Shown here one piece after another: positions 2,651 through 39,590 of a stretch of 39,590 nt of DNA. Position 1 is the stretch's first letter. Every line of letters begins with the position of its first letter. The notes beneath the pieces were generated by a model, which searched no databases, was not told the DNA's origin, and was given only the letters and a program-made list of their open reading frames with translations. Origin of the DNA: a virus; IMG/VR virus record IMGVR_UViG_3300045988_011202, positions 1 to 39,590 of that record. One strand, written 5' to 3'. The translations under genes were made by a program, and so were the position numbers.

Positions 2651-3307
2651 ATGGAAAAAACTTTACAGGATATTTGCAGAGAGGCAAAGGAGTACCAGCA
2701 TCTTACCACGCAAGACTTAGCCGATTTAACAGATCTGTCATCGTCCACGATCAGCAATTACTTTTCTGCATCGTCAAAGGATCCAAGCCTATACAAAATG
2801 GGGCTTATATGCGCCGCCCTCGGTGTGTCTATAGATGAGTATTTTGGTATCGTAAAGAGACCAACCACGGAGGAGCAGCTGGCAGAGGCACATAGAGCAA
2901 TGGCCGATGCAGATGCAAAGCATAGCGCAGCCCTACGCATTGCGCACTTGGAGGGCGGCATGGAGCAACTGACCGGATCAGTGGCAAAGCATGAAAAAAA
3001 GGAGCGCGTATTGCAAATTTGGGTGTATATCCTGGCGTTTTCGCTGTCGATTTCCGTATCCATAATATTTGGATATTTGGCGTTTGACTCAAGCGTCCCC
3101 CACACGGGGCTTATCCGCAACGGGCAGATTACATCACTCGGCTGGATGCTATTTGCGCTGCTTGCAGTAGGCGTCGGTGTAATCATTGCTGCGCTGATAA
3201 ATGCACTGCGATATTACAGGCACCATCAAACCGATAAAAATATAGGGCAGGAGGATAAAAATGGGAAAAGCAATGAGGAGGGCCAACGGAACCGGGACAG
3301 TGTATAA
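2651..3307 (+). CDS. membrane-tethered XRE-family HTH protein (HTH, coiled coil, 2 TM helices)
   Basis: 218 aa with RBS GGAGGGG. The HTH is LTTQDLADLTDLSSSTISNYF...AALGVSIDEYF. The TM helices are VLQIWVYILAFSLSISVSIIFGYLAF and LGWMLFALLAVGVGVIIAALINAL. Confidence 0.75.
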   Translation: MEKTLQDICREAKEYQHLTTQDLADLTDLSSSTISNYFSASSKDPSLYKMGLICAALGVSIDEYFGIVKRPTTEEQLAEAHRAMADADAKHSAALRIAHLEGGMEQLTGSVAKHEKKERVLQIWVYILAFSLSISVSIIFGYLAFDSSVPHTGLIRNGQITSLGWMLFALLAVGVGVIIAALINALRYYRHHQTDKNIGQEDKNGKSNEEGQRNRDSV

Positions 3308-4262
3308 GCTCGCCGGCCGCCGCCGCAGGCCTTGGGTGGCCGCAAAGCAAAAAATTATTATAGGATATTACCCCACCAAAAAAGATGCTATAGCGGCGCT
3401 GGAACGTCTTGCAGGCAAGGATTTAACGGAGCGGTACAACATGACCTTTGCCCAGGTGTTCGACGCTTGGAAAGAGGAGCATTACAAAAAAATAGGGCCA
3501 AACGGTATAGAGGGCTATGATGGCGCATTTAAAATTTTTGCGCCGCTGCATGAGCGGAAGTTCCGAGACTTAAAAACGGCGGATTTCCAGGGCGTGCTGG
3601 ATGCCCACATGCATAAATCCCACAGCACTGTGTCCAAGTATAAGCAACTCATAACGCAGATGTCCACATGGGCCATGCGTGAGGAGATCATCACAACAAA
3701 TTTTGCAAAATTCGCCCAGCTACCGGAAAACATAAAGAAAGAAAAAGAAACATTTACCGATGTAGAAATAAGCAAGCTGGAGGCGGACGGCAGCGACACC
3801 GCAAAAATTATCCTCATGCTGATTTACACAGGCATGCGCATAGGGGAATTGTTTTCCCTCCCGACTAAAGACTATCACAAAGATTATGTGATCGGCGGCG
3901 AAAAGACGAAAGCCGGGCGGAACAGGATCATCCCCATCCGCCCTGAAGGGCTCCCATACTTTGCCTATTTTGCAAATAAGGCCACCGGCCCGCTGCTCAT
4001 ATCCGGCTATGCTGGGGAAAAAATCCCAGCAAACTTCCGCCGCCGGGATTATTACCCGCTTTTGGAGAAATTAAAAATCCAGCGCAAAACGCCGCACTCC
4101 ACCCGGCACACCTATGCGAGCTGGGCGAGAAAAGCGGGGATTGCTCCAGAGATGCTGCAGAGGATCATCGGCCACGCCAACTACTCCACTACCGCAAATA
4201 TATACGTCCATACGTCAGCGGAGGAATTGGTGCAGGCCGTTAAAAAGGCGAAAATTTGTTAG
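3261..4262 (+). CDS. int: tyrosine site-specific integrase
   Basis: 333 aa with AGGAGG 7 nt upstream. Catalytic signature: GMRIGEL..., HSTRHTYASW, GHANYSTTANIYVH (R-H-R-H-Y). Confidence 0.95.
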   Translation: MGKAMRRANGTGTVYKLAGRRRRPWVAAKQKIIIGYYPTKKDAIAALERLAGKDLTERYNMTFAQVFDAWKEEHYKKIGPNGIEGYDGAFKIFAPLHERKFRDLKTADFQGVLDAHMHKSHSTVSKYKQLITQMSTWAMREEIITTNFAKFAQLPENIKKEKETFTDVEISKLEADGSDTAKIILMLIYTGMRIGELFSLPTKDYHKDYVIGGEKTKAGRNRIIPIRPEGLPYFAYFANKATGPLLISGYAGEKIPANFRRRDYYPLLEKLKIQRKTPHSTRHTYASWARKAGIAPEMLQRIIGHANYSTTANIYVHTSAEELVQAVKKAKIC

Positions 4263-4400
4263 TAGTTTGTTAGTTACCGACGGGAGCCAAGGCAAGCCTG
4301 TGCAGAATTACTCGGTGAAAAGTTGCAAAATCGCAACAAATATTGTTATTCTTATTAACTTTTGTGCCTATATATTCAAAACGATTATAATTCACTCGCA

Positions 4401-4435
4401 GGAGGTCACTGGTTCGAGTCCAGCAGTCTCCACCA
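4401..4435 (+). other. attP core candidate: 3' fragment of a tRNA gene (variable loop, T-arm, acceptor 3' strand, CCA)
   Basis: The sequence is ggaggtc-actgg-TTCGAGT-ccagc-agtctcc-a-cca. No matching 5' half (GGAGACT, D-arm) lies upstream. It sits immediately downstream of int. Confidence 0.7.
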
Positions 4436-4440
4436 AAAAA

Positions 4441-4479
4441 GTCCAGGAATCTCAAGGGTTCCCGGACTTTTTATTTTTG
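4441..4479 (+). terminator. rho-independent terminator after the tRNA fragment
   Basis: GTCCAGG...CCCGGAC stem followed by TTTTTATTTTT. Confidence 0.6.
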
Positions 4480-4519
4480 CCAAGATTAACTTTGTTAGTA
4501 ATGTGTTAGTAGTAGCGAT

Positions 4520-4843
4520 TTAGGTTAGTTTTTTTAGGACGCTGTTATAGGCTTTCTCATTGACGATTTTTAGGGTGTCCATAAGCTCGTCCATGACTTC
4601 CCACGCCCTATCCTGTGCCACATTCCCGACCGCTTTCAAAAATTCACTGCCGGAGGGGTTTATTGTCTTGGCCGGCGCGGGCTCTGCAGAATACAGCATT
4701 GGGGGAGCTTTCGCCTGCAGTTGCTCCCCGCCGTGCTCGTTACGGATAATGTAGAGCGCCGCCAGTTTCTCATAATTGGGCCAGCTTGATTCTTCTGTTT
4801 CCAGCCGTGCGATCCATAGTTTCAGCTCGGTTTCATCGATCAT
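4520..4843 (-). CDS. cargo operon gene H, hypothetical (107 aa)
   Basis: Start MIDETELKLWIARLE lies after a GGGGGA RBS. The longer ORF-track start (4912) would overlap gene G. Confidence 0.7.
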   Translation of the reverse strand: MIDETELKLWIARLETEESSWPNYEKLAALYIIRNEHGGEQLQAKAPPMLYSAEPAPAKTINPSGSEFLKAVGNVAQDRAWEVMDELMDTLKIVNEKAYNSVLKKLT

Positions 4844-4856
4844 GGGGAATCCCCCT

Positions 4857-5234
4857 TTAATTCTCCATAAGGCTGACAGCGCGGCGCAGGGCCTCCCTGA
4901 CGCGCTCGTCATCCGTTTCCCGCATCATGTCGTTTAGCTGGGTGCGCAGATGCTCCGCGCCATCCGCGCGGCTGTAATGTCCGCGCACATAGTGCGAGCC
5001 GCGCCGCGCGTAGGAACTGCCCCGGCCATAGGCGCCGCGCATATCCGCTTCCCAATCACCGCCGCCAGAATAGCCGTCTGATTCCATCATGTCAATTTTA
5101 TCTATGTTCTTGATGGTTGCTGTCAGTTTGTGGGCAATTTCCAGGTCGCCCGCACCCAATTCGCCTTTTCGGGCCAGTTCGTCCAGCTCCTTGCAGAGCA
5201 TATCCCGCAGTTCATACATAGATTTCATACCCAT
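4857..5234 (-). CDS. cargo operon gene G, hypothetical protein with a central G/R/Y/S-rich disordered segment
   Basis: 125 aa with RBS AAAGGAGAA. Helical ends flank DGYSGGGDWEADMRGAYGRGSSYARRGSHYVRGHYSR. Confidence 0.75.
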   Translation of the reverse strand: MGMKSMYELRDMLCKELDELARKGELGAGDLEIAHKLTATIKNIDKIDMMESDGYSGGGDWEADMRGAYGRGSSYARRGSHYVRGHYSRADGAEHLRTQLNDMMRETDDERVREALRRAVSLMEN

Positions 5235-5248
5235 TGTGTTCTCCTTTC

Positions 5249-5671
5249 TCAGCTCACACGGTCGATGGTCAGGTTGCTATTGGCAAAGCTGACCGCCTCC
5301 GCGCTGGTGTTCTTCGCTGCCACAGTCACGCAGCAACCACGCGGCACTTCCACGATGGCGCTGACGTAGACGTTAAAATAGTTTTCCACCGCAGCCGGGG
5401 TGACGGTCGCCGTTGCTCCGTTGAGTGCTTCGCCGTTGACGGCAAGCGCCGTGGTGATCGCGCCTACCGTGCCGCCCGTGGGGACGGCGATGTTCGCGCC
5501 AAAGCTCACCTTAAAGCGCGCCTTACACTGCTGCGTCAATCCGCGCAGGGTGACAAGTCCACTGCCCTCGCGGTGGACGATGCAGGGCTTGCCGCAAGCC
5601 GCAGTGGATACCATCGGAATATTCTGGCCAGCAAGGACGGTCACGATTCCGGGATTTACATATTCAGCCAT
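5249..5671 (-). CDS. cargo operon gene F, C1q/TNF-like (BclA C-terminal-domain-like) beta-sandwich protein
   Basis: 140 aa. The alternating beta pattern GQNIPMV...LVTLRG...FKVSFGANIAV...ALAVNGEALNG...VSAIVEV...VTVAAKNTS...SNLTIDRVS recalls BclA-CTD-type domains (from memory). Confidence 0.6.
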   Translation of the reverse strand: MAEYVNPGIVTVLAGQNIPMVSTAACGKPCIVHREGSGLVTLRGLTQQCKARFKVSFGANIAVPTGGTVGAITTALAVNGEALNGATATVTPAAVENYFNVYVSAIVEVPRGCCVTVAAKNTSAEAVSFANSNLTIDRVS

Positions 5672-5696
5672 AATTTCAGTCCTTTCATAAAATACA

Positions 5697-5720
5697 GCGG
5701 CAGGGCTATTGCCCCGCCGC
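5697..5720 (-). terminator. possible intra-operon terminator or attenuator hairpin between cargo genes E and F
   Basis: Minus-sense GCGGCGGGGC-AAUA-GCCCUGCCGC followed by UGUAUUUUAU. Confidence 0.3.
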
Positions 5721-5788
5721 CTTTGTTTATAGTATCGGCATGGGGCCGACCATTTCCCAACATAGGGAAAAGCTACGCTATGCAGTTG

Positions 5789-6505
5789 TCAGCAGCCGCA
5801 ACCGGCAAACTGGTTGCAGCAATAAGGATTCTGCACCGTGTAGGCCGGAATGGGAGAGGGGCGCAGCTGCGAAACCAGATAGCTATTCTGAGCCGCCTGG
5901 CTTGCCGCCAGCTTCAAACCCTGGTTCTCGGCCTGGAGGTCAGAGAGCTTGCTCTGCGTGAGGAAGTCGAGGATTGCGCGGCTGTTGCTGTTGGCGTTGT
6001 CGATGATGTCGCGGGTCGCGTTCTGCACCGTGTTCCGGGTATCGCAAGCCTGAGCAGCCATGTCATACCGCACGCCCTCGATGCTGCGCTGGGTGTTGCA
6101 GCAGCACTCAGCGGCCTGCATTTGCATTGCAGTCAACTGCTGCATGAGAGCCGCCTGCTGGTTACTGCGGGAGAGCTCAGCCTGCGCAAAGCCGTTGGCC
6201 ATCGCCATGTTGGTGCCGTTGACAAGCTGCGCCTGCTGGTAAAAACCGTCGCAAAGGCCCTGATTTACACTGTCGATCTTGCGCTCGACATTGGCAAAAT
6301 CAGAGGTCAGCACGTAGCCGTCGACCACGCCGCCGGAATTGCCAGCGTTGTTGCCCCAGCCGTTGCCGCCCCAGCCCATTAGCACGATAAAAAACAGGAT
6401 GATCCACCAGCCATTACCGCCGCCGAAACCATCATAGCCGCCGCCCATCATGCCGGTAGGCGCAACGGGCATAATAGTGGAGGTACCACCATCAGAGAGA
6501 GCCAT
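5789..6505 (-). CDS. cargo operon gene E, Gly-rich membrane protein with a coiled coil and Cys clusters
   Basis: 238 aa. GGGYDGFGGGNGWWIILFFIVLMGWGGNGWGNNAGNSGG resembles a tiny-TM/YjcZ-like segment. It also has a Q/A/N-rich helical region, ECCCN, and a C-terminal NPYCCNQFAGCGC. Confidence 0.75.
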   Translation of the reverse strand: MALSDGGTSTIMPVAPTGMMGGGYDGFGGGNGWWIILFFIVLMGWGGNGWGNNAGNSGGVVDGYVLTSDFANVERKIDSVNQGLCDGFYQQAQLVNGTNMAMANGFAQAELSRSNQQAALMQQLTAMQMQAAECCCNTQRSIEGVRYDMAAQACDTRNTVQNATRDIIDNANSNSRAILDFLTQSKLSDLQAENQGLKLAASQAAQNSYLVSQLRPSPIPAYTVQNPYCCNQFAGCGC

Positions 6506-6540
6506 AAAATCACTCCTTTGTTTTAAAAAATTTTATCTAA

Positions 6541-6554
6541 TTCGTGGCCACGAA
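6541..6554. promoter_or_regulatory. perfect 14-bp palindrome TTCGTGGCCACGAA upstream of gene E (operator-like), next to an A/T-rich -10-like TAAAAT
   Basis: Read directly in the 53-nt D-E intergenic gap. Confidence 0.3.
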
Positions 6555-6558
6555 AAGA

Positions 6559-6780
6559 TTACCGGAACAAATTCCCAAATTGGGCCGCCATGCCCTGGAG
6601 TTGGTTTAACTGATCCTGCGAGATTTGACCGCTTTGCACAAGCCGCTCAATCTCCGCCTTGGGATCGCCTTTAAATGTCGATTTAAACTGATTAAACTGC
6701 TGTATCATCTGCGCAAAGCCGCCCATCGGGCCGGACATCCGCCCGCCGCCCAGCGCACCATAAAACGGATTACCCATCAT
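6559..6780 (-). CDS. cargo operon gene D, G/M/Q-rich 73-aa protein
   Basis: MMGNPFYGALGGGRMSGPMGGFAQMIQQFNQFK...LNQLQGMAAQFGNLFR. It overlaps the end of gene C by 11 nt. Confidence 0.65.
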   Translation of the reverse strand: MMGNPFYGALGGGRMSGPMGGFAQMIQQFNQFKSTFKGDPKAEIERLVQSGQISQDQLNQLQGMAAQFGNLFR

Positions 6781-7207
6781 TATCGGTCTCCTTTACTTTT
6801 TTCGGATTTTCTGCGCCTTTTATCTCCTCCACGATTGCCGTCAGGCGGTCAAACTCTTCTCGCGTGACAAATTCAGCGCCCGGCTTTTTAGGTGTTACAG
6901 GCCCTATTTCTGCCCGCTCCGTGAGATCGTAAATCTTAAGAGATGGTTTTCCGCTGGCATCTGCCTGCTTGAGATAGACGGTAGGTGCGGTACTGTCCCA
7001 TAAAGCAACCGCCGCGTTAGGCGCTATCATCCAATTCCGGGCCTCCTGCTCGCCGCTTACCCATTGCACCCCGCCCTGTGCGATTGGATTTTGCGGGGCC
7101 TGTGGCGTCTGCATCATAGGCATCTGCTGCTGCCGCATCTGCATGAGTGTGTCCGGCATAGGCTGCGGGTAATAAGGGTTTTGGTAGCCGTAAGGGGTAA
7201 AAGCCAT
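6770..7207 (-). CDS. cargo operon gene C, P/Q/M-rich N-terminus plus a globular C-terminal domain
   Basis: 145 aa. YGYQNPYYPQPMPDTLMQMRQQQMPMMQTPQAPQNP is followed by GVQWVSGEQEARNWMIAPNAAVALWDSTAPTVYLK. Confidence 0.7.
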   Translation of the reverse strand: MAFTPYGYQNPYYPQPMPDTLMQMRQQQMPMMQTPQAPQNPIAQGGVQWVSGEQEARNWMIAPNAAVALWDSTAPTVYLKQADASGKPSLKIYDLTERAEIGPVTPKKPGAEFVTREEFDRLTAIVEEIKGAENPKKVKETDNDG

Positions 7208-7209
7208 AA

Positions 7210-7593
7210 TTATTCCATCCTTTCCGTTGTCCAGTAATATAAGGGCACTTCGCCGCCCGAATTCCAGGAATCAAAAATTACGCCATCCTGTACGCAGACC
7301 ACATGTCCGGATAGAGCAAGGATATAAGTCCCTTTTGGGTGTTCCTCCGCAAACCGCTCCACCGTGTAGCAATCGGGGCATGTGTCCGGGATAATATGCC
7401 GCCGGTATCCGATACTGCGCAAGTAAGACCCCCAACAGGCGTTAGCGTTTGGTAAATCTCCGTCCAAGTAGCCCTGCATGCACAGCCGGAGGTAAACCTC
7501 ACCCCAATCCTTTCCCGTGGCCTTACAGATTGCGCGGACAGTGCAATCGGACACGTTTTTCCCGCATGGATTTGGATTAAAATATTTATACAT
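7210..7593 (-). CDS. cargo operon gene B, putative papain-like (Cys-His-Asp) peptidase or transglutaminase-fold protein
   Basis: The start MYKYFNPNPCGKNVSDCTVRAI overlaps the stop of gene A. Candidate triad is C (SDCTVRA), H (LSGHVVCV) and D (FDSWNS). It resembles a widespread prophage family (from memory). Confidence 0.6.
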   Translation of the reverse strand: MYKYFNPNPCGKNVSDCTVRAICKATGKDWGEVYLRLCMQGYLDGDLPNANACWGSYLRSIGYRRHIIPDTCPDCYTVERFAEEHPKGTYILALSGHVVCVQDGVIFDSWNSGGEVPLYYWTTERME

Positions 7594-7726
7594 GATCGCA
7601 ATCCCTATATAGGCTTTCAGCAATTTCCACATACGCTAAAAGCCCCCGGGGATCGTCTGCGTACAGAATGCAAATATCCTGCGCCATTTGCGCGGTAAAC
7701 CCGCATTTGATTAATCGCTCGTACAT
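7586..7726 (-). CDS. cargo operon gene A, hypothetical 46-aa protein
   Basis: ATG lies 7 nt after AAGGAGG. Translation is MYERLIKCGFTAQMAQDICILYADDPRGLLAYVEIAESLYRDCDHV. It is below the ORF-track cutoff. Confidence 0.5.
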   Translation of the reverse strand: MYERLIKCGFTAQMAQDICILYADDPRGLLAYVEIAESLYRDCDHV

Positions 7727-7750
7727 ATTCCAGCCTCCTTGCCTCTATAA

Positions 7751-7787
7751 TAAAAAAAATCCGGGCAGATAAACTGCCCGGATTCTG
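7751..7787 (-). terminator. rho-independent terminator (minus strand) closing the RHH operon
   Basis: Minus-sense AATCCGGGCAG-UUUAU-CUGCCCGGAUU followed by UUUUUUU. Confidence 0.75.
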
Positions 7788-7804
7788 CCTGGATTCTGCA
7801 ATGA

Positions 7805-7945
7805 TTAATCTTCTTTTTTTATTGCCTCTTTAATTAGTTTCTCGATGTAGTTCGAGACGCTGCGCCCATCCGCTTCAGCGGCGGCCTGCAGTTGGGATTT
7901 GAGATCCGGCGTGATCCGGATTACGAGACGGTCTGTTTTTGCCAC
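7805..7945 (-). CDS. ribbon-helix-helix (CopG/Arc-like) DNA-binding protein, 46 aa
   Basis: GTG start after GGAGGT. VAKTDRLVIRITPDLKSQLQAAAEADGRSVSNYIEKLIKEAIKKED shows the classic RHH beta-alpha-alpha pattern. Confidence 0.7.
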   Translation of the reverse strand: MAKTDRLVIRITPDLKSQLQAAAEADGRSVSNYIEKLIKEAIKKED

Positions 7946-7961
7946 TTGCTACCTCCAAAAT

Positions 7962-8366
7962 TTAATCCCACATATGCGCTACGCAATATGCGCTCCATTT
8001 TTCCTCCATCTCGGATATGGCTACGTTATAATCCTCACCCGCCAAAATTTTATGCGCAGCGGATTGACCGGCTGTGCGTTTGGCGTAATTTTCGGCCTTG
8101 CTCCACTCATCCGCCTTGAGATATGCAACAGCTTTTGGATATTGCTTGCGCAGCGCATCAAGATCGTGAGTCGGCTTAGGGCGGACACCCATACCGCCAC
8201 ACGCTGCATCACCCTCAAAGGACGCATTTAGTTCCCGATGCCACGCTCGTAAATCGGCCTGCGCGTTTCTGATTTCCGATAGCCCCGGAATGGCGTTTAT
8301 CTTGGCCGCCAAGTCTTGCGCCTCTTGTTTTTCGGATCGCTCTTTTTCCAGTAAGTAATCCATCAT
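7962..8366 (-). CDS. hypothetical 134-aa protein (accessory operon)
   Basis: The start MMDYLLEKERSEKQ lies 8 nt after GGAGGTG. The longer ORF-track start would overlap the upstream gene. Confidence 0.7.
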   Translation of the reverse strand: MMDYLLEKERSEKQEAQDLAAKINAIPGLSEIRNAQADLRAWHRELNASFEGDAACGGMGVRPKPTHDLDALRKQYPKAVAYLKADEWSKAENYAKRTAGQSAAHKILAGEDYNVAISEMEEKWSAYCVAHMWD

Positions 8367-8367
8367 T

Positions 8368-8715
8368 TTAGTGCTCACCTCCATACTCTCCTGTGACATC
8401 CTCAACGTCAAAATTCCAGGAGTCCCCATTATTAATCTCGTCCTCGGTAAGCCCCTGCAATCCATCACCGTCTTCGCCCCTGTTAGCGTTTTCGCACTCG
8501 TGCTCCCACCAAGAGATCAGTTCATCGGCATCCTTATCTGTATAGGTATAGGCTTTGTCGCAACCACAATCGTCAAGATCAATGACATCATGGCCATCGC
8601 GCGCATCGTAACCGCCTATATCGTCAAAGCAATCGGGTTCATACCCGGCATTCCATCCGCCGCGCCAAAGGCGGAGGGTAATCTCCAGCAATCGAGTTTC
8701 GGTTTTGATAAACAT
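8368..8715 (-). CDS. very acidic 115-aa protein (candidate DNA-mimic or anti-defence protein)
   Basis: The start MFIKTETRLLEI follows AGGAGA. D/E-rich stretches include DCFDDIGGYDARDGHDVIDLDDCGCD...EDGDGLQGLTEDEINNGDSWNFDVEDVTGEYGGEH. Confidence 0.7.
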   Translation of the reverse strand: MFIKTETRLLEITLRLWRGGWNAGYEPDCFDDIGGYDARDGHDVIDLDDCGCDKAYTYTDKDADELISWWEHECENANRGEDGDGLQGLTEDEINNGDSWNFDVEDVTGEYGGEH

Positions 8716-8766
8716 TTGATTTTCTCCTTTCAAAATTGGCCTGTCCGTTATCTTTACTGTGGTTAC

Positions 8767-8795
8767 AGTGTACACCATTTGTACACATAATGCAA
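8767..8795 (-). promoter_or_regulatory. promoter of the acidic-protein/RHH operon, with two TGTACA palindromes 11 bp apart
   Basis: Minus-sense TTGCAT-17 nt-TACACT. TGTACA sits at 8769-8774 and 8780-8785 within direct GTGTACA repeats, inside the spacer and -10. A further inverted repeat TGCACAAA-N13-TTTGTGCA lies upstream (about 8808-8836). Confidence 0.5.
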
Positions 8796-8831
8796 GGAGA
8801 GAAGTGCACAAATTTTTATTATTTTTTTGTG

Positions 8832-8871
8832 CAAAAACGAAAAATAGCCGCACCCAAAAAGGGCACGGCTA
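8832..8871 (-). terminator. rho-independent terminator (minus strand only)
   Basis: Minus-sense AGCCGUGCCC-UUUUU-GGGUGCGGCU has two G-U pairs, which would be C-A mismatches on the + strand. It is followed by AUUUUUCGUUUUU. Confidence 0.65.
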
Positions 8872-8874
8872 CTT

Positions 8875-9150
8875 TTAGGAATTGAATGCATCCGCCAGTT
8901 TTTGGTATGCTCGGCGGCGCAATTTGTAAAATCCATCTACACTGATATGCAGTTTTGCCGCCGTCTGTACGCAGGTGCGGCCAAAAACGTCCACGTCAAT
9001 TACACAGGTTTCCTCGTCTTCCGGTAGCCCTACCGCGCGGATCGTTTCTGTGGCGCGGCATGGTGCCATAGTGGATAGTTTTTTGCGGATCCTTTTGTGC
9101 TGTTCTATCATTTTCCACGGTGTGCCGTGGAGGTGCGGATGCTTATGCAC
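8875..9150 (-). CDS. small sigma70-region-4-like HTH protein (start uncertain)
   Basis: The C-terminus TCVQTAAKLHISVDGFYKLRRRAYQKLADAF looks like a sigma region 4 / RinA-type HTH. The GTG start at 9150 has no RBS; the alternative is ATG 9111. Confidence 0.55.
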   Translation of the reverse strand: MHKHPHLHGTPWKMIEQHKRIRKKLSTMAPCRATETIRAVGLPEDEETCVIDVDVFGRTCVQTAAKLHISVDGFYKLRRRAYQKLADAFNS

Positions 9151-9241
9151 GGGCGTGAGGCCGGCGTAGCGATGTCCTCTGCGCCCTCCAGGTGTTTACC
9201 GTTACCGGATATACCCATCAAACCCGGCATCCTTCAGCCGC

Positions 9242-10291
9242 TCAGATGGGCAGCTCGTTCACTCTCTTCTGGACAGCAGCGTAGTCGTATCCAGCGGATT
9301 CGAGCTTGCAGCGACGCTCAGCACCGTTGCCCCATTTGCCGGCAATAACTTCCAGGGCAATCTCGTTAACTGACTTTTTCACAACACTACCAGTGCTGAT
9401 GGTGCTGAGATCAACCCAGCCATACACGCCGCTAATGTACGCGCCTTTGTCATTAACAGCTCGGAGGTGGATCGGATGCTTGCCGCTGCTTTTTGCCGTC
9501 ACTTTTGCCTTGGATGCCTTGACTTCAGTGCCGGATGTGGCATTTGCGCTCGTATAGTGCTTGCCTCCCTTGAAATCCACAATCTCGCCGACATTCACGT
9601 CCAGCGTGGCGGGCTTGCCCGGCTGCTCAGGCTCTTCCTTGCTGTTCAGCAGCTCATTCACGCGATCCTGCACGGCATCATAGTCGTACCCCTCTGCCTC
9701 CAGGCGCTGGCGGCGGTCGGAGCCATTGCCCCACTCGCCACGGATCACCTCCCGGGCAACCTCGTCCACGGACTTAGCAGGCTGGGCAGATAGACGGCTA
9801 TTGACCTCTGCGGCAATGCGGCCCATGCGCTTGTGCAGGTAGGGCCCGGGACAAGCCGTAGCCGTAAACATACGGTGCTCGGTCAGGTTGCCGTCTGCAC
9901 CCCCGGTGTAGTTAAGGGCCTTGATGCCGTTGCGCTGGCAGATGTCCACGCACAGGTCAATCAGCTTGCTATAAGCTGCATTGGACACGGGCCAGTCGCC
10001 GCCGGTGGCGCAGTTGGCAACCTCGATGTTGACGGCTCGGTTGTCGTTGCTGGGAGACGCAGAGGCCCATGCGCGGTCGCCCTCGTCCACATAGAGGCCC
10101 ACCCGGCCATCGGAGCCGATACCATAGTTGGAGCTGGCCTCGTAGCTGGGTTTGGCAAAGAGATTGCCGCAGGTCTCCACAGACAGATCACCGGCCATGT
10201 GATGGATGGTGATCTTGTCAATGGCGTGGTTCCGTGGATGGTCGCAGTTAGGGGAGAGTTTGGTGTAAGATACCAAGCTGGAATTACTCAT
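9242..10291 (-). CDS. endolysin: N-acetylmuramoyl-L-alanine amidase (Amidase_2/PGRP), CW_7 repeat, SH3-like domain, second CW_7 repeat
   Basis: Start MSNSSLVSYTKLSPN. ITIHHMAGDL...NIEVAN...TEHRMFTATACPG is an Amidase_2 pattern. There are two Cpl-7-type repeats (VAREVIRGEWGNGSDRRQRLEAEGYDYDAVQDRVNELL and ALEVIAGKWGNGAERRCKLESAGYDYAAVQKRVNEL). Confidence 0.93.
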   Translation of the reverse strand: MSNSSLVSYTKLSPNCDHPRNHAIDKITIHHMAGDLSVETCGNLFAKPSYEASSNYGIGSDGRVGLYVDEGDRAWASASPSNDNRAVNIEVANCATGGDWPVSNAAYSKLIDLCVDICQRNGIKALNYTGGADGNLTEHRMFTATACPGPYLHKRMGRIAAEVNSRLSAQPAKSVDEVAREVIRGEWGNGSDRRQRLEAEGYDYDAVQDRVNELLNSKEEPEQPGKPATLDVNVGEIVDFKGGKHYTSANATSGTEVKASKAKVTAKSSGKHPIHLRAVNDKGAYISGVYGWVDLSTISTGSVVKKSVNEIALEVIAGKWGNGAERRCKLESAGYDYAAVQKRVNELPI

Positions 10292-10499
10292 TGCCGCTGC
10301 CCCCTTTGTTGTAGGTGGCCGTGGAGATGCACAGCACAGCGCCCAGGAACGTGTCCACGGCGGTGATGGTGGTGACGATCTCCTCCGAGTAGGGCCAGGC
10401 CCACACGGCGGACAAGGCCGCGTACAGCGTGGCAATGGCCGGCAGGACGATGATGACCAGCCACTTGAGAATGTCATACAGCTTGTCAGGGATTTTCAT
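10284..10499 (-). CDS. holin (Dp-1-type family)
   Basis: 71 aa. MKIPDKLYDILKWLVIIVLPAIATLYAALSAVWAWPYSEEIVTTITAVDTFLGAVL is typical of Phage_holin_Dp1. It overlaps the endolysin start. Confidence 0.85.
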   Translation of the reverse strand: MKIPDKLYDILKWLVIIVLPAIATLYAALSAVWAWPYSEEIVTTITAVDTFLGAVLCISTATYNKGGSGNE

Positions 10500-26495: not shown

Positions 26496-27720
26496 GCCCA
26501 AGTCCTGCCACGATTTTCTTTTCTCTGTCGGAAAGTTCCCACACGTTTGTATCACGCACTCTTACTTTCTCGGCGGCGGCTTTCTCGGCGGCGGCTTTCT
26601 CGGCGGCGGCTTTCTTTGAAAGCAAATAGCCGCTTCCGAATAGTGCTCTCCCGCTTTCCTTCTGCGCATCAAGACCACGAATGAAATGCACATCATCTGC
26701 ACAAATTTCAAGTGATACGCCATGCGCCGCCATGTAGCAAAGCATTGTTGCCGTTAATACTTCGTCCGGATATTCATATTTTGGGAGCGTTTTATGCTGT
26801 TTTGCAAGATTTTCTTTATTCGCTTCGTCTATCTGCTCTCTCAAATCAGATGCGGCAATAATTTTTTTGCTTCCTAAGTTCGTCACAAACGATGTGTTTA
26901 CGCTTGCACCGTTTTCATAAACCACACCGCTACCGCAAGCAACGTAGTTTGCCTTACCTCGCATGATTCCGAGCAACGTCAAAGTCGGCGCAAAAAGAAA
27001 ATATGCAATGCCGTTTTCTGTATACCACTCACAGATCTCAGAAATAATAGAAAATGGAGGATTGTCAATAACAACGCACCCTTTTGGATAGTTTTCTTTT
27101 TTGTAATTTCCTCCGGGATAAAAAGGGCGAACAACAGGTGGATTACCAAGTTTATATTTTTTCAGGCTCCACCGCTTGGCTACATTGTAAATATTTTCTG
27201 GTGTGTAGCAATCGTCCGTTGTTTTCTTCGCCTCGAACTTTTCAAGGAAAGCTTGGTAGTCCTCGTCATCGTCTGAAAGCTCTCCACGCTCCATCCTTTC
27301 CCGGAACTCCTGCTCTCTTTGCTCGTTGGTCATTTCTTCAATTTCGGATTCGTCCAGCTCCGGAAAAGAAAAGTCAAAATCAAACGCCGACAGGTCAAGC
27401 CCAGGCAGTTCCACCGCCAGCAGGTCAAAGTCCCAGTCGCTCTCGTTGCTCTTGTTATCCACCAGACGTAGGGCGTTCACCTGCTCCGGTGTCAGATCGT
27501 CCACGCAGACGCAAGGCACTTCTTCCATGCCCAGCTTCTTTGCCGCCATAGCACGGCAGTGGCCGATTACAATCACACCGTCACGGTCAATCACAATCGG
27601 CTGCACAAAGCCGTATTGCTTGATGCTCTCCGCAACATTGTTGATTTGCCGTTTATCATGCTTTTTTGCGTTGCCGGCATACGGCACAATATCCGCAAGC
27701 CGCCGTTTTGTGATTTTCAT
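26485..27720 (-). CDS. ParB-like nuclease domain fused to an N6-adenine-type DNA methyltransferase
   Basis: The start MKITKRRLADIVPYAGNAKKHD follows AGGAGGAAA. The ParB-N motif is GFVQPIVIDRDGVIVIGHCR. The methyltransferase motifs are DDCYTP and VVIDNPPFS. Confidence 0.85.
   Translation of the reverse strand: MKITKRRLADIVPYAGNAKKHDKRQINNVAESIKQYGFVQPIVIDRDGVIVIGHCRAMAAKKLGMEEVPCVCVDDLTPEQVNALRLVDNKSNESDWDFDLLAVELPGLDLSAFDFDFSFPELDESEIEEMTNEQREQEFRERMERGELSDDDEDYQAFLEKFEAKKTTDDCYTPENIYNVAKRWSLKKYKLGNPPVVRPFYPGGNYKKENYPKGCVVIDNPPFSIISEICEWYTENGIAYFLFAPTLTLLGIMRGKANYVACGSGVVYENGASVNTSFVTNLGSKKIIAASDLREQIDEANKENLAKQHKTLPKYEYPDEVLTATMLCYMAAHGVSLEICADDVHFIRGLDAQKESGRALFGSGYLLSKKAAAEKAAAEKAAAEKVRVRDTNVWELSDREKKIVAGLGHDD
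26565..26615 (-). repeat. 15-nt tandem repeat x3.4 inside the ParB-methyltransferase gene (encodes KAAAE x3)
   Basis: ctttctcggcggcgg is repeated head to tail. Confidence 0.9.
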
Positions 27721-28345: not shown

Positions 28346-28422
28346 TGGCAGGGACGGTTGGGAATCGAACCCACCCAAGCGGTTTTGGAGACCGCCTCGC
28401 CAGCCTTGGAACATTCGCCCCT
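28346..28422 (-). tRNA. tRNA-Trp(CCA)-like element, 77 nt, with a degenerate D-arm and an irregular T-arm
   Basis: Acceptor is AGGGGCG/CGTCCCT (one G-U) followed by G-CCA. The anticodon arm GCGGT-CUCCAAA-ACCGC is perfect. The T-loop is TTCGATT, but one extra nt lies between the T-stem and the acceptor. The D region AATGTTCCAAGGCTGGCGAG forms only about 3 bp. Confidence 0.55.
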
Positions 28423-28605: not shown

Positions 28606-28698
28606 TGGTGCAGACGGCTGGACTCGAACCAGCGACCAATGGCATTCAATCGCATATCCATTTGCGCGATAAAGCTCTACCGACTGAGCTACGCCTGC
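28606..28698 (-). tRNA. 93-nt tRNA-like element: canonical acceptor, D-arm and T-arm, but no canonical anticodon arm
   Basis: GCAGGCG-TA-GCTC-AGTCGGTA-GAGC ... GCTGG-TTCGAGT-CCAGC-CGTCTGC-A-CCA. Between the D and T arms there are 40 nt instead of about 23. Two mutually exclusive helices form there: ATCGC/GCGAT and AATGG/CCATT. Confidence 0.5.
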
Positions 28699-36137: not shown

Positions 36138-36779
36138 CTACCATCGCATAAACTCCGCCAGGCTATTGTCCGGTGTCTTTTCCTTGGGATCGGCAGTCTT
36201 TGCCCATCTTTCCCACTTTTCGGCATTTCGACAAGCCGCTTTCCAGTTTTTCATGGGGGTCTTGCCGACCATCCAGCCCTTAGACTCGTAGAAATCAATA
36301 AATTCCTGCGGGTCCACCGGGGAATGGCGTTCAGCCACATAGGACTGCACCTCTGCCAGGGTGGGCGGGGTAAAGCGCTTCGCGCGTATATCACCCTTGC
36401 TATCGTTAGATAGCTGGGTATTGGTATTGGTTTTGGTTTCGGTATTGGTTTCGGTATTGCCATTTTTGCCATTAGCAACTATGGCTTTGCCATTTTTGCC
36501 ATTAGCAAAAATGCGTTTGCCATTTTGCCATCTTGCGGCGGCTCCGGCCTTGCCCGCCTCGCGCCGGGTGGTAGAAATGTCGTCATAGCTCGCCTTAAAC
36601 CGATCCTCCTGCGCCATTACGCGCTTGGCATAAAATCTCTCATTGCCACAGAGCGCCAACTGCTCTCCCGTCATGCTGTATACCAGCAATGCCCGCGTTA
36701 GCCGCCCGAACTCTGCATCGTTGAGTGCTTCCATCTCCTCTAAATAGTCATAGGGGAGTGCAGCATAGTTTCTTGCCAT
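36138..36779 (-). CDS. replisome-organiser-like protein with the conserved phage C-terminus (Phg_2220_C-type)
   Basis: 213 aa. The C-terminus is FTPPTLAEVQSYVAERHSPVDPQEFIDFYESKGWMVGKTPMKNWKAACRNAEKW. The linker is low-complexity NGK/TETN repeats. Confidence 0.75.
   Translation of the reverse strand: MARNYAALPYDYLEEMEALNDAEFGRLTRALLVYSMTGEQLALCGNERFYAKRVMAQEDRFKASYDDISTTRREAGKAGAAARWQNGKRIFANGKNGKAIVANGKNGNTETNTETKTNTNTQLSNDSKGDIRAKRFTPPTLAEVQSYVAERHSPVDPQEFIDFYESKGWMVGKTPMKNWKAACRNAEKWERWAKTADPKEKTPDNSLAEFMRW
36425..36530 (-). repeat. coding tandem repeats: a 12-nt unit (ggtattggtttc) and a 30-nt unit (gccatttttgccattagcaa...) x2.4
   Basis: Read directly. They encode ANGKNGKAIVANGKNGNTETNTETKTNTNT. 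Confidence 0.8.
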
Positions 36780-39293: not shown

Positions 39294-39590
39294 TCCTCCA
39301 CCTCCGAAATCTCGCCGTTTTGCAGCGTGTACCATGTGTTTTCTTTGACGGCTTCTCCGTCGACCCTTACGATTTTGGCATCTATGATGTTTCCGTCATC
39401 GTCACGCTCCGATACCAAAAGCCAGTTGCCCACAGAGCCTCTTGCAAGGCTATCCTGGCCCCATGCAACGGCGACGCACTGATTGCCAATCGCGGATGCT
39501 TTGCCATACCGGCCAGTCACAGCAGCCGTGCCACTCCAGCCCGATGCGGCGGCGTTGCCACTCACACCCGATGCGGCGGCGTTGCCACTC
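39290..39590 (-). CDS. C-terminal part of the wrap-around DUF7666-like repeat protein (the N-terminal part is 1..445)
   Basis: The frame stays open to the right window edge: ...SGNAAASGVSGNAAASGWSGTAAVTGRYGKASAIGNQCVAVAWGQDSLARGSVGNWLLVSERDDDGNIIDAKIVRVDGEAVKENTWYTLQNGEISEVEE. The ORF-track Met at 39565 is not the real start. Confidence 0.8.
   Translation of the reverse strand, partial: SGNAAASGVSGNAAASGWSGTAAVTGRYGKASAIGNQCVAVAWGQDSLARGSVGNWLLVSERDDDGNIIDAKIVRVDGEAVKENTWYTLQNGEISEVEE

Follow-up and report, generated by a model that had tools for sequence, protein, structure and literature searches.

A conserved, mobile and dispensable eight-gene cassette in viruses of gut anaerobes, with a Cys-rich coiled-coil core protein and a TNF/C1q-like jelly roll

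Introduction

The described systems that come closest to the locus analysed here, an eight-gene cassette at positions 4520-7726 of the IMG/VR virus record IMGVR_UViG_3300045988_011202 (39,590 nucleotides (nt), analysed whole and called the window), are of several kinds. In the Bacillus cereus group the exosporium is built from BclA, a collagen stalk with a TNF-like C-terminal domain (CTD) and a proteolytically matured N-terminus, from the anchor BxpB/ExsFA and from the Cys-rich lattice of ExsY/CotY. Morons such as lambda bor and lom or the streptococcal and staphylococcal toxin genes are dispensable, exchanged units of one or two genes that come last before the phage attachment site (attP) and have their own promoter and terminator. 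Fibres with TNF-like knobs (PRD1 P5, adenovirus fibre, reovirus sigma-1) combine a coiled-coil protein with a TNF-like trimer, and spanins and influenza HA2 offer a parallel for a Gly-rich hydrophobic segment followed by long heptads. We find that the cassette of the window is a fixed, constrained, self-contained, mobile and dispensable unit of gut-anaerobe viruses that comes with its own regulatory unit.

With the exosporium set the cassette shares the jelly-roll fold of its protein F (that of BclA-CTD, F-BclA and BxpB/ExsF), a Cys-rich partner, a small protease-like enzyme and the lack of signal peptides in all components. It has, however, no collagen repeats or targeting motif, F gives no Pfam BclA_C match, the core protein E contains a coiled coil and a hydrophobic segment and is not ExsY-like, and the carriers are phages of non-sporulating bacteria and of archaea. 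Like a moron it is, in this lineage, the last unit before attP and the integrase, has a promoter and terminator of its own, is dispensable and is exchanged between phages; unlike morons, it is a fixed operon of eight genes, occurs also in integrase-less and crAss-like phages and has a promoter that looks activator-dependent and not constitutive. E recalls spanins and HA2 in its N-proximal Gly-rich hydrophobic segment, the long heptads that follow, its conserved Cys residues and its closeness to lysis genes, yet E has neither a lipoprotein partner nor a transmembrane segment at its C-terminus, the hosts of the window lineage are monoderm, the cassette is dispensable and the similarity is not significant. 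The pairing of a coiled-coil protein with a TNF-like trimer, and the depositors' labels 'viral fiber' and 'spike', are reminiscent of TNF-knob fibres; here, in contrast, two polypeptides would supply the shaft and the knob, and the cassette, whose products are only hypothetically parts of virions, is not tied to one virion type.

No paper describing the cassette was found in the literature searched. Its individual folds are of known kinds, but as a system it matches no described family or system that we found. Since E and F each form some 7,900 or more clusters at 90% identity, it belongs to the commoner multi-gene units without a characterised role in the gut virome of humans and animals. It stands out by its strict synteny, strong constraint, self-regulation and mobility, and by a core protein that crosses the divide between bacterial and archaeal hosts. 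Its function, once known, would annotate thousands of phage genomes, and might bring to light a part of the phage life cycle that is peculiar to the gut, for instance in release, exclusion, persistence or the interaction with the host.

Results and Discussion

A fixed and constrained operon of eight genes

A preliminary description of the window, made from its letters alone, had listed eight co-oriented genes, A to H. Open reading frames (ORFs), ratios of nonsynonymous to synonymous substitution (dN/dS), PHROG families and synteny agree with this list, and the eight ORFs lie on the minus strand between a hairpin with a T-run and attP:

7586-7726, minus strand: A, ORF for a 46-amino-acid (aa) helical protein; first gene, translationally coupled to B
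7210-7593, minus strand: B, 127-aa enzyme-like protein with Cys16-His96-Asp107 (phrog_3754, E = 2e-34)
6770-7207, minus strand: C, P/Q/M/Y-rich N-terminus, beta-rich core of ~55 aa and C-terminal helix with a K/E/D tail (phrog_21718, E = 1e-30)
6559-6780, minus strand: D, 73 aa, G/M-rich N-terminus and Q-rich helical C-terminal half (phrog_22984, E = 1e-22)
5789-6505, minus strand: E, core protein of 238 aa (phrog_16490, E = 7e-40)
5696-5721, minus strand: GC-rich hairpin in the E-F spacer, from the scan for terminator-like structures
5249-5671, minus strand: F, free-standing 140-aa jelly roll of the TNF/C1q/BclA-CTD type (phrog_20016, E = 1e-56)
4857-5234, minus strand: G, disordered G/R/Y/S/D-rich core between helical ends (phrog_28802, E = 2e-11)
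4520-4843, minus strand: H, 107-aa helical protein; last gene, start at 4843 behind a GGGGG ribosome-binding site

The compositions first described for C, D and G were recovered, as was the length of 107 aa for H, given its start at 4843. A and B overlap by 8 nt and C and D by 11 nt, and B-C, F-G and G-H are spaced by 2-14 nt; the spacers are wider between D and E (53 nt) and between E and F (117 nt), where the hairpin lies. The E-F spacer is also an insertion hotspot: an extra ORF for a 71-aa helical protein occupies it in the loci L015-L017 (10835-11050 in L015), and the gap is enlarged in about ten IMG/VR loci.

All eight genes are under purifying selection, with pairwise dN/dS values of 0.04-0.37 (~0.15 for D and ~0.2 for A). 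B to G match PHROG families at E = 2e-11 to 1e-56, each of them labelled 'unknown function', and none of the eight proteins has a significant match in Pfam, NCBIfam or PADLOC. The earlier statement that none of the genes belongs to a standard phage module is right in that no known phage, defence or Pfam family is involved; the genes are nevertheless recurrent phage families and not orphans.

A scan of IMG/VR with F gave more than 594 loci, and synteny was counted in the best 80 of these. F and G are present in all 80, E in 77, B, C and D in 74, H in 71 and A, as a homologue preceding B, in 24. The order B-C-D-E-F-G-H and the strand are constant in all 74 contigs that reach far enough. Most missing genes are missing at contig ends, but H is undetectable in several contigs of sufficient length. 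Divergent versions of A occur in the loci L001 and L005 and in the Butyrivibrio virus Ceridwen, where the gene is unannotated.

Mobility and dispensability

The complete 43.9-kilobase (kb) phage MT835513 (L014) shares with the window no detectable terminase, portal, capsid, tail, lysin or integrase gene. Common to the two are the cassette (41-82% identity), the small regulator-like gene R described below and a few replication genes, so that in this pair the cassette is not co-inherited with a particular capsid or tail set.

The phages phiCP39-O, 26F, 13O, 34O and 9O have flanks that are 96-97% identical to those of the Clostridium perfringens phage 17DYC and lack 2.15 kb with C-, D- and E-like genes and a gene for a beta protein. 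The deletion, relative to 17DYC and CPD1, maps to 4206-6359 of L105 as compared with 2006-2037 of L106 (phiCP39-O), and the H-like gene is left as a 78-aa remnant (gp44, phrog_17454, the family of the H-like proteins present in C. perfringens phages). Since the phiCP39-O group consists of well-studied plaque formers, virions can be assembled and cells lysed without the cassette under laboratory conditions. An essential structural or lysis function was rejected on the lack of co-inheritance with virion genes and on this deletion in viable close relatives.

Homing endonuclease genes of the HNH/I-HmuI type lie in or beside the cassette in four unrelated phages (L001, 9743-10294; L018, 9518-10312; L021, 5044-5667; L023, 6270-6890), and the copies of Ceridwen and CPD1 are 45% identical. 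Their presence in four lineages fits a cassette that is a highly conserved, often co-infecting DNA target.

Distribution across viruses

The hosts of the window lineage are Oscillospiraceae, according to the labels of metagenome-assembled genomes, and the cassette reaches well beyond them. Ceridwen, whose Butyrivibrio host is non-sporulating, carries, behind the lysin gene, an A-like gene followed by B, C, D, E, F, G and H in order, the run being interrupted between F and G by a gene for a homing endonuclease. It has neither integrase nor excisionase, and only lytic growth was observed (PMC7372960). Phages of the C. perfringens CPD1/17DYC group carry C-, D- and E-like genes (CPD1 encodes the C homologue), a Cys-rich beta protein at the position of F and an H-like gene. 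Members of the E family are also known from many crAss-like phages, from the cultured phage C3_41T2LP of Bacteroides uniformis and from viruses of Methanomassiliicoccales. Some crAss-like records label them 'spike protein/glycoprotein' or 'outer capsid protein/viral fiber'.

In the modules of Bacteroides phages the partners of E are a beta-rich Cys protein, a phrog_28898 protein (beta-rich in its N-terminal part, with a C-terminal coiled coil), a G-like R/D/Y-rich disordered protein of 74-77 aa and a small HExxH peptidase. Beta-rich Cys proteins stand at the position of F in CPD1, cr116_1 and C3_41T2LP, and a small peptidase is always nearby, either the papain-like B or the HExxH protein that replaces it in Bacteroides phages. 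Pfam and PHROG scans of the distant module partners were uninformative, the only named matches being DUF7841 (one C3_41T2LP protein) and a Flg_new repeat (a vir215 neighbour). Holin and endolysin genes precede the cassette in the window, in L015 and Dulem virus 33, and likewise in Ceridwen, CPD1/17DYC and cr116_1.

A further element type, ~43 kb long and represented by L009-L013 (1-8104), carries the cassette without A and H directly after a single ~3,770-aa protein with the polyvalent-protein domains LPD23/LPD3. Outside phage and prophage contexts a single copy was found, in a 120-kb bacterial contig (L008, 9339-10818), where a truncated E gene and the genes of F and G stand beside an ISL3 transposase fragment; this looks like a decaying chromosomal remnant of the cassette.

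Promoter-like element and candidate regulator R

The preliminary description had placed a strong terminator upstream of A at 7751-7787. A hairpin with a T-run is indeed present at 7756-7786, but it is not a terminator alone, as a promoter-like element overlaps it:

7747-7799, minus strand: promoter-like element overlapping the upstream hairpin (sequence reading, terminator scan and pattern search)
8875-9111, minus strand: R, small helix-turn-helix (HTH) protein, 78 aa from the ATG at 9111, sigma-70 region 4-like (Pfam Sigma70_r4_2)

The element consists of repeats phased at 11 nt (GCAGAATCC at 7791-7799 and 7780-7788, GCAG at 7774-7777) and, ~20 nt past them, a -10-like TATTAT at 7747-7752, followed by the ribosome-binding site and the ATG of A; a -35 is absent. 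At least three phased repeats with a period of 10-12 nt are found in 28 of 52 distinct regions upstream of related cassettes, as against 3-5% in controls. The arrays end shortly before a -10-like hexamer (TATGAT, TACAAT or CATACT), again without a -35, while the repeat sequence is lineage-specific (TGACCA, TGACCC, TGAGGCAC, GCACTTT and others). The intergenic region of the L009-L013 element holds three to four phased TGACCC repeats and a CCATACTGGACA element that is found in other lineages too.

Late promoters of the TP901-1 Alt type in Firmicutes phages have direct repeats at helical phase before the -10 and no -35. The cassette resembles this type in its three to four direct repeats with a period of 10-12 nt, which end ~20-25 nt before the -10-like hexamer, and in the small HTH gene encoded beside its promoter. 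It differs in that the candidate activator is ~75 aa long and sigma-70 region 4-like, not Alt-like, with its binding only predicted, and in that an accessory cassette and not a structural operon is driven. As read from the sequence, the promoter logic looks like that of an activator-dependent phage promoter, not like a recognisable sigma-E/K/G type.

The similarity of R to sigma-70 region 4 is weak and sub-threshold (E = 0.009 for Pfam Sigma70_r4_2 and 0.008 for a PHROG annotated 'sigma factor'). A gene of the R type or of the L002 type (~75 aa) lies upstream of B in 61 of 74 IMG/VR loci, at a distance of 70-350 nt in about 32, and R is also kept in L014, L026 and L082 despite their unrelated structural genes. 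In the window, R directly follows the endolysin gene on the late strand, three inserted genes away from the cassette. We infer that R is a candidate activator of the cassette and, because its gene sits just after that of the endolysin, that the cassette is probably expressed late.

Two other promoter types were considered. A sigma-70 promoter upstream of A was rejected, there being no convincing -35/-10 pair. The proposed search for sigma-E/K/G promoters found none recognisable upstream, the phased repeats and -10-like hexamer being present instead; a sigma-E/K promoter was rejected because the CATACT hexamer of many relatives has, by eye, no matching -35.

Position beside the attachment site

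The downstream end of the cassette is defined by the following features:

3261-4262: tyrosine integrase gene, convergent with the cassette
~4392-4435, plus strand: fragment like the 3' half of a tRNA, probable attP core region (read from the sequence)
4441-4467: intrinsic terminator, bidirectional, closing the cassette (sequence and terminator scan)

The terminator and the tRNA 3'-end-like fragment are thus situated between H and the integrase gene. ARAGORN called no full tRNA at 4392-4435, and an Rfam scan of 4000-9300 gave no match above threshold. In the integrated relative L015, similarity with the window stops just past the 4441-4467 terminator and host genes lie beyond; ARAGORN found no complete tRNA on either side of the point where L015 and the window diverge. 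The integrase is convergent with the cassette in at least 34 of 71 loci, and a further 18 stop at the prophage border. Integrase, terminator and the border of L015 all bear out, for the window lineage, the moron position beside attP that had been assigned to the genes.

Such a place at the prophage end beside the att site, with a promoter and terminator of its own, is what would be expected of a moron that is expressed from the prophage, alters the lysogen's envelope and thereby keeps out superinfecting phages or protects the host in some other way; without a spore element, this is the alternative of an exclusion or defence system named in the preliminary description. The cassette is the last operon before attP and the integrase, it stops at the prophage border in L015 and in many IMG/VR proviruses, it is dispensable and mobile among unrelated phages, it includes one predicted membrane protein, and variable small genes and toxin/antitoxin-like genes surround it. 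We nevertheless consider this explanation unlikely. The cassette is not confined to temperate phages: Ceridwen, the CPD1/17DYC group and crAss-like phages carry it, or its core, with no integrase nearby. Its proteins contain no ATPase, nuclease or sensor domain, and a known defence system was rejected as none of the eight has a PADLOC-DB match at E <= 1. Strict synteny and strong conservation over thousands of phages are unlike fast-turnover defence islands, and the promoter without a -35 looks dependent on a phage activator.

Core protein E

The features first noted in E, a Gly-rich tiny-TM-like segment, a coiled coil, a CCC motif and a C-terminal GCGC, agree with its sequence. Members of its family have a conserved MPVxP N-terminus, an ASQxAQ...RPxPxPAY motif, Q-rich heptad regions, an invariant CCC (134-136) and a C-terminal CC...GCGC. 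A search of 5.8 billion proteins gave 7,912 or more clusters of this family at 90% identity, and the family alignment covers viruses of Firmicutes, crAss-like phages, Bacteroides phages and archaeal viruses.

A hydropathy and signal scan found no signal peptide or lipobox in any cassette protein and a hydrophobic segment in E only. This segment has 13 residues (~33-45), flanked by Gly, Trp and Asn, and reaches a Kyte-Doolittle maximum of 1.47 in a 19-residue window. As it is the sole hydrophobic segment of the cassette, E is the putative membrane-associated core. The resemblance to YjcZ-like tiny transmembrane proteins suggested earlier did not hold up: E has no such NCBIfam or Pfam match, and the likeness is compositional only. 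Likewise, a two-component spanin pair was rejected, because no cassette protein has a signal peptide or a lipobox Cys context.

In PDB sequence and profile searches against all chains, B, C, E and F gave no significant match. With the E profile (residues 36-125), ten of twelve sub-threshold matches were to influenza HA2/HEF2 (E = 0.04-0.9) and covered the fusion-peptide end and helix A. E does not qualify as a class I fusion subunit, as the HA2 matches are sub-threshold only and a C-terminal hydrophobic segment is missing.

Jelly-roll protein F

For F the assignment to a BclA-CTD/C1q-like beta sandwich proved right as a statement on its fold. The AlphaFold2 (AF2) model has ten strands and a predicted local distance difference test (pLDDT) score of 73.7; one of five models reaches pLDDT 70, from an input alignment of 45 sequences. 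In Foldseek searches it matches EDA-A1, BclA-CTD, F-BclA, BxpB/ExsF, 4-1BBL, C1QL1 and TWEAK in the PDB (E ~5e-6, TM-score 0.6-0.75), and further the phi812 spike knob, the cyanophage A4 tail and phage proteins with a C1q domain. Model and matches agree on a ten-stranded TNF-like jelly roll. In BFVD the matches are stand-alone proteins of ~135 aa from gut contigs labelled as sipho-, podo- or myoviruses (TM-score up to 0.88), some of them named 'BclA protein'.

The F family comprises at least 7,905 clusters at 90% identity in the same set of 5.8 billion proteins (658 clusters at 50% identity with E <= 1e-3). Among the full-length representatives listed, all are stand-alone proteins of ~130-196 aa, and a CC is conserved in F. 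F of the window has no Pfam match at E <= 1 and so falls outside BclA_C (PF18573), which is weakly matched by 3 of 73 diverse family members (best E 1.8e-4). Its 140 aa are entirely jelly roll, with no collagen-like GXX repeats and no exosporium-targeting N-terminus.

The main reading in the preliminary description was that of lysogenic conversion by a module that would build or cross-link material of the spore coat or exosporium. In its favour are the fold of BclA-CTD and BxpB, the few weak BclA_C matches, the Cys-, Gln- and Tyr-rich partners and the papain-fold enzyme, which recall coat and exosporium chemistry, and the absence of signal peptides, as in coat proteins made by the mother cell. 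The distribution contradicts it: the entire cassette occurs in Ceridwen, and E occurs in phages of the likewise non-sporulating Bacteroides and in archaeal viruses. Since the core protein is found also in viruses of Bacteroides and of methanogens, the cassette is a phage function and not a spore-coat conversion module. The features of exosporium proteins named above are missing from F, no sporulation family of NCBIfam or Pfam is matched, no sigma-E/K/G promoter is recognisable, and the suggested check of sporulation loci turned up no copy, the decayed L008 remnant being the sole one outside phages. The spore-surface idea is essentially excluded; we give it hardly any credence.

F and E together could also form an optional addition to the virion, in which E would be a trimeric, Cys-stapled fibre and F a knob decorating capsid or tail for gut persistence or adhesion, with B, C, D, G and H as assembly factors. 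TNF-like knobs are frequent on viral fibres, and F matches several phage proteins of this kind; extracellular fibres typically have a Cys-rich coiled-coil build, the layout of the promoter hints at late expression, decoration proteins are usually dispensable, as the cassette is, and in cr116_1 the module has terS on one side and the capsid genes on the other. Depositors, too, labelled E-like genes 'outer capsid protein/viral fiber'. We still regard such a role as quite unlikely. The cassette occurs in phages without any detectably similar virion protein and on contigs labelled as sipho-, podo- and myoviruses, and as the virion proteins of its carriers are unrelated, a specific docking site on the virion is improbable. 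F is the most constrained gene of the cassette (dN/dS ~0.10), unlike exposed receptor-binding knobs, the cassette is in Firmicutes phages a separate transcription unit outside the structural module, and B, C, E and F have no significant profile match among PDB chains.

Protein B and the low-complexity protein C

B proved to start at the ATG at 7593, in line with the lengths of its homologues (124-129 aa); the family comprises 966 clusters at 90% identity. That B is a papain-like Cys-His-Asp protein, as first described, agrees with both its alignment and its model. D15, C16, H96 and D107 are invariant in 50 sequences, and in the AF2 model (pLDDT 93) Cys16 opens a helix (16-25) while His96 and Asp107 belong to adjacent strands (97-101 and 104-107), which is the papain-like arrangement of Cys at a helix N-terminus with His and Asp/Asn on neighbouring strands. 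B has no Pfam, NCBIfam or PDB sequence match. The Foldseek check that had been proposed for all eight proteins was, of the two modelled, clear-cut for F alone: B gave nothing significant (best E 0.3, best probability 0.30), although its recurrent weak matches are papain-like, namely the TssM deubiquitinase, Josephin-2 (TM-score 0.45), Tae4 and the leader protease (Lpro) of foot-and-mouth disease virus; the transglutaminase Tgl is not among them.

Stand-alone homologues of B (33-42% identity) are encoded in the early regions of Bacillus Tsamsa-like phages (L020; Tsamsa gp15) and of Geobacillus phage GBK2 (L019; gp35), and others in Lak megaphage genomes. The Tsamsa homologue is near an ocr-like anti-restriction gene and a kinase gene. 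These early-region and Lak copies would suit a host-takeover or counter-defence set related to polyvalent-protein modules, made of small peptidases and effectors that act early on the host, as would the place of the cassette directly after the ~3,770-aa LPD23/LPD3 protein in L009-L013 and a PolyVal metallopeptidase in the C3_41T2LP module. We judge such a set improbable, because the cassette mostly lies at the end of the late region behind the lysis genes and not among early genes, its members mostly look low-complexity or structural and are not enzymes, and packaging of its products has no support.

Protein C is cysteine-free. Its residues ~45-95 gave sub-threshold profile matches in the PDB, three of five of which were to thioredoxin-fold proteins (E = 0.04-0.09).

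A tentative mechanism

We tentatively favour an autonomous, dispensable cassette, controlled by the phage, that builds a membrane-associated complex of Cys-knotted coiled coils and TNF-like trimers with a benefit linked to release. As a horizontally mobile accessory unit of tailed viruses that infect gut and rumen anaerobes, it would be turned on by the phage through its own regulator R, late in the lytic programme. E may anchor in or insert into the cytoplasmic membrane through its Gly/Trp-flanked segment and oligomerise by its Q-rich coiled coils, with a ring of CCC motifs and the C-terminal CxC stapling it as disulfides or metal thiolates. An F trimer (TNF/C1q fold, conserved CC), or another beta/Cys protein in other lineages, would dock on E. 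Chaperones or adaptors may be provided by C, D and G, which are of low complexity, and by the helical A and H; B would cleave or cross-link one component, a metallopeptidase maturing the complex in Bacteroides phages. The product would be a membrane-associated complex with a non-essential fitness benefit during infection, preferably a membrane-active step tied to release. The lean to a late, membrane-active, release-linked role comes from the usual place of the cassette after the lysis genes and from the HA2 proteins that dominate the sub-threshold matches of E; a release-linked accessory role is thus weakly favoured.

Several points weigh against this mechanism. All steps beyond a regulated accessory cassette are inferred, and the link between R and the promoter appears to be one of co-occurrence only. 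The likeness of E to HA2 is not significant, its short hydrophobic segment may not span a membrane, and monoderm hosts require no spanin-like step. Nearly all loci of the window lineage have the cassette as their final operon ahead of attP and the integrase, which is the classic moron position. Moreover, Cys-rich proteins and TNF/C1q folds are typical of extracellular assemblies, so that a role in the virion or after lysis fits them no less well than one at the cytoplasmic side of the membrane.

A bolder variant, which we regard as a long shot, has the cassette build a Cys-stapled extracellular or envelope structure of TNF/C1q-like trimers on fusion-protein-like stalks, matured by the peptidase, released at lysis and acting outside the producer. 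If so, it might act on neighbouring microbes, on virion persistence or, through its TNF/C1q-like ligand fold, on the animal host, and would be an unrecognised viral system specific to gut anaerobes that spans viruses of Firmicutes, Bacteroidota and methanogenic archaea. Cultured carriers exist in Butyrivibrio phage Ceridwen, C. perfringens phages 17DYC and CPD1 and Bacteroides phage C3_41T2LP, and the phiCP39-O group provides a natural deletion series.

Genome context of the window

The window is a complete temperate phage genome. It is circularly closed, since a 27-nt tandem repeat unit is found at both 3-119 and 39529-39590, and the junction is spanned by an array of about six to seven copies of this unit. 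The late genes lie on the minus strand and run from the tape measure and tail genes through holin, endolysin and four small genes to the cassette:

10284-10499, minus strand: holin of the Dp-1 type
9242-10477, minus strand: endolysin, Amidase_2/CW_7
7805-7945, minus strand: ribbon-helix-helix (RHH) protein of the Arc/CopG type, 46 aa, last of the four small genes

The three genes inserted between R and the cassette (7805-8853, minus strand) encode an acidic protein (161-aa ORF), a 168-aa ORF product with no family match and the RHH protein. In closely related phages, e.g. L025-L028, this insertion is missing or replaced by other genes.

Elsewhere in the window, tRNA-Trp(CCA) and tRNA-Ala(CGC) are encoded on the minus strand at 28346-28422 and 28606-28698. 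Further tandem repeats were found at 26565-26615 and 36417-36531; one has a 15-nt unit (3.4 copies), and units of 12 nt and 30 nt occur in the replication region, where they are possibly an origin or iterons.

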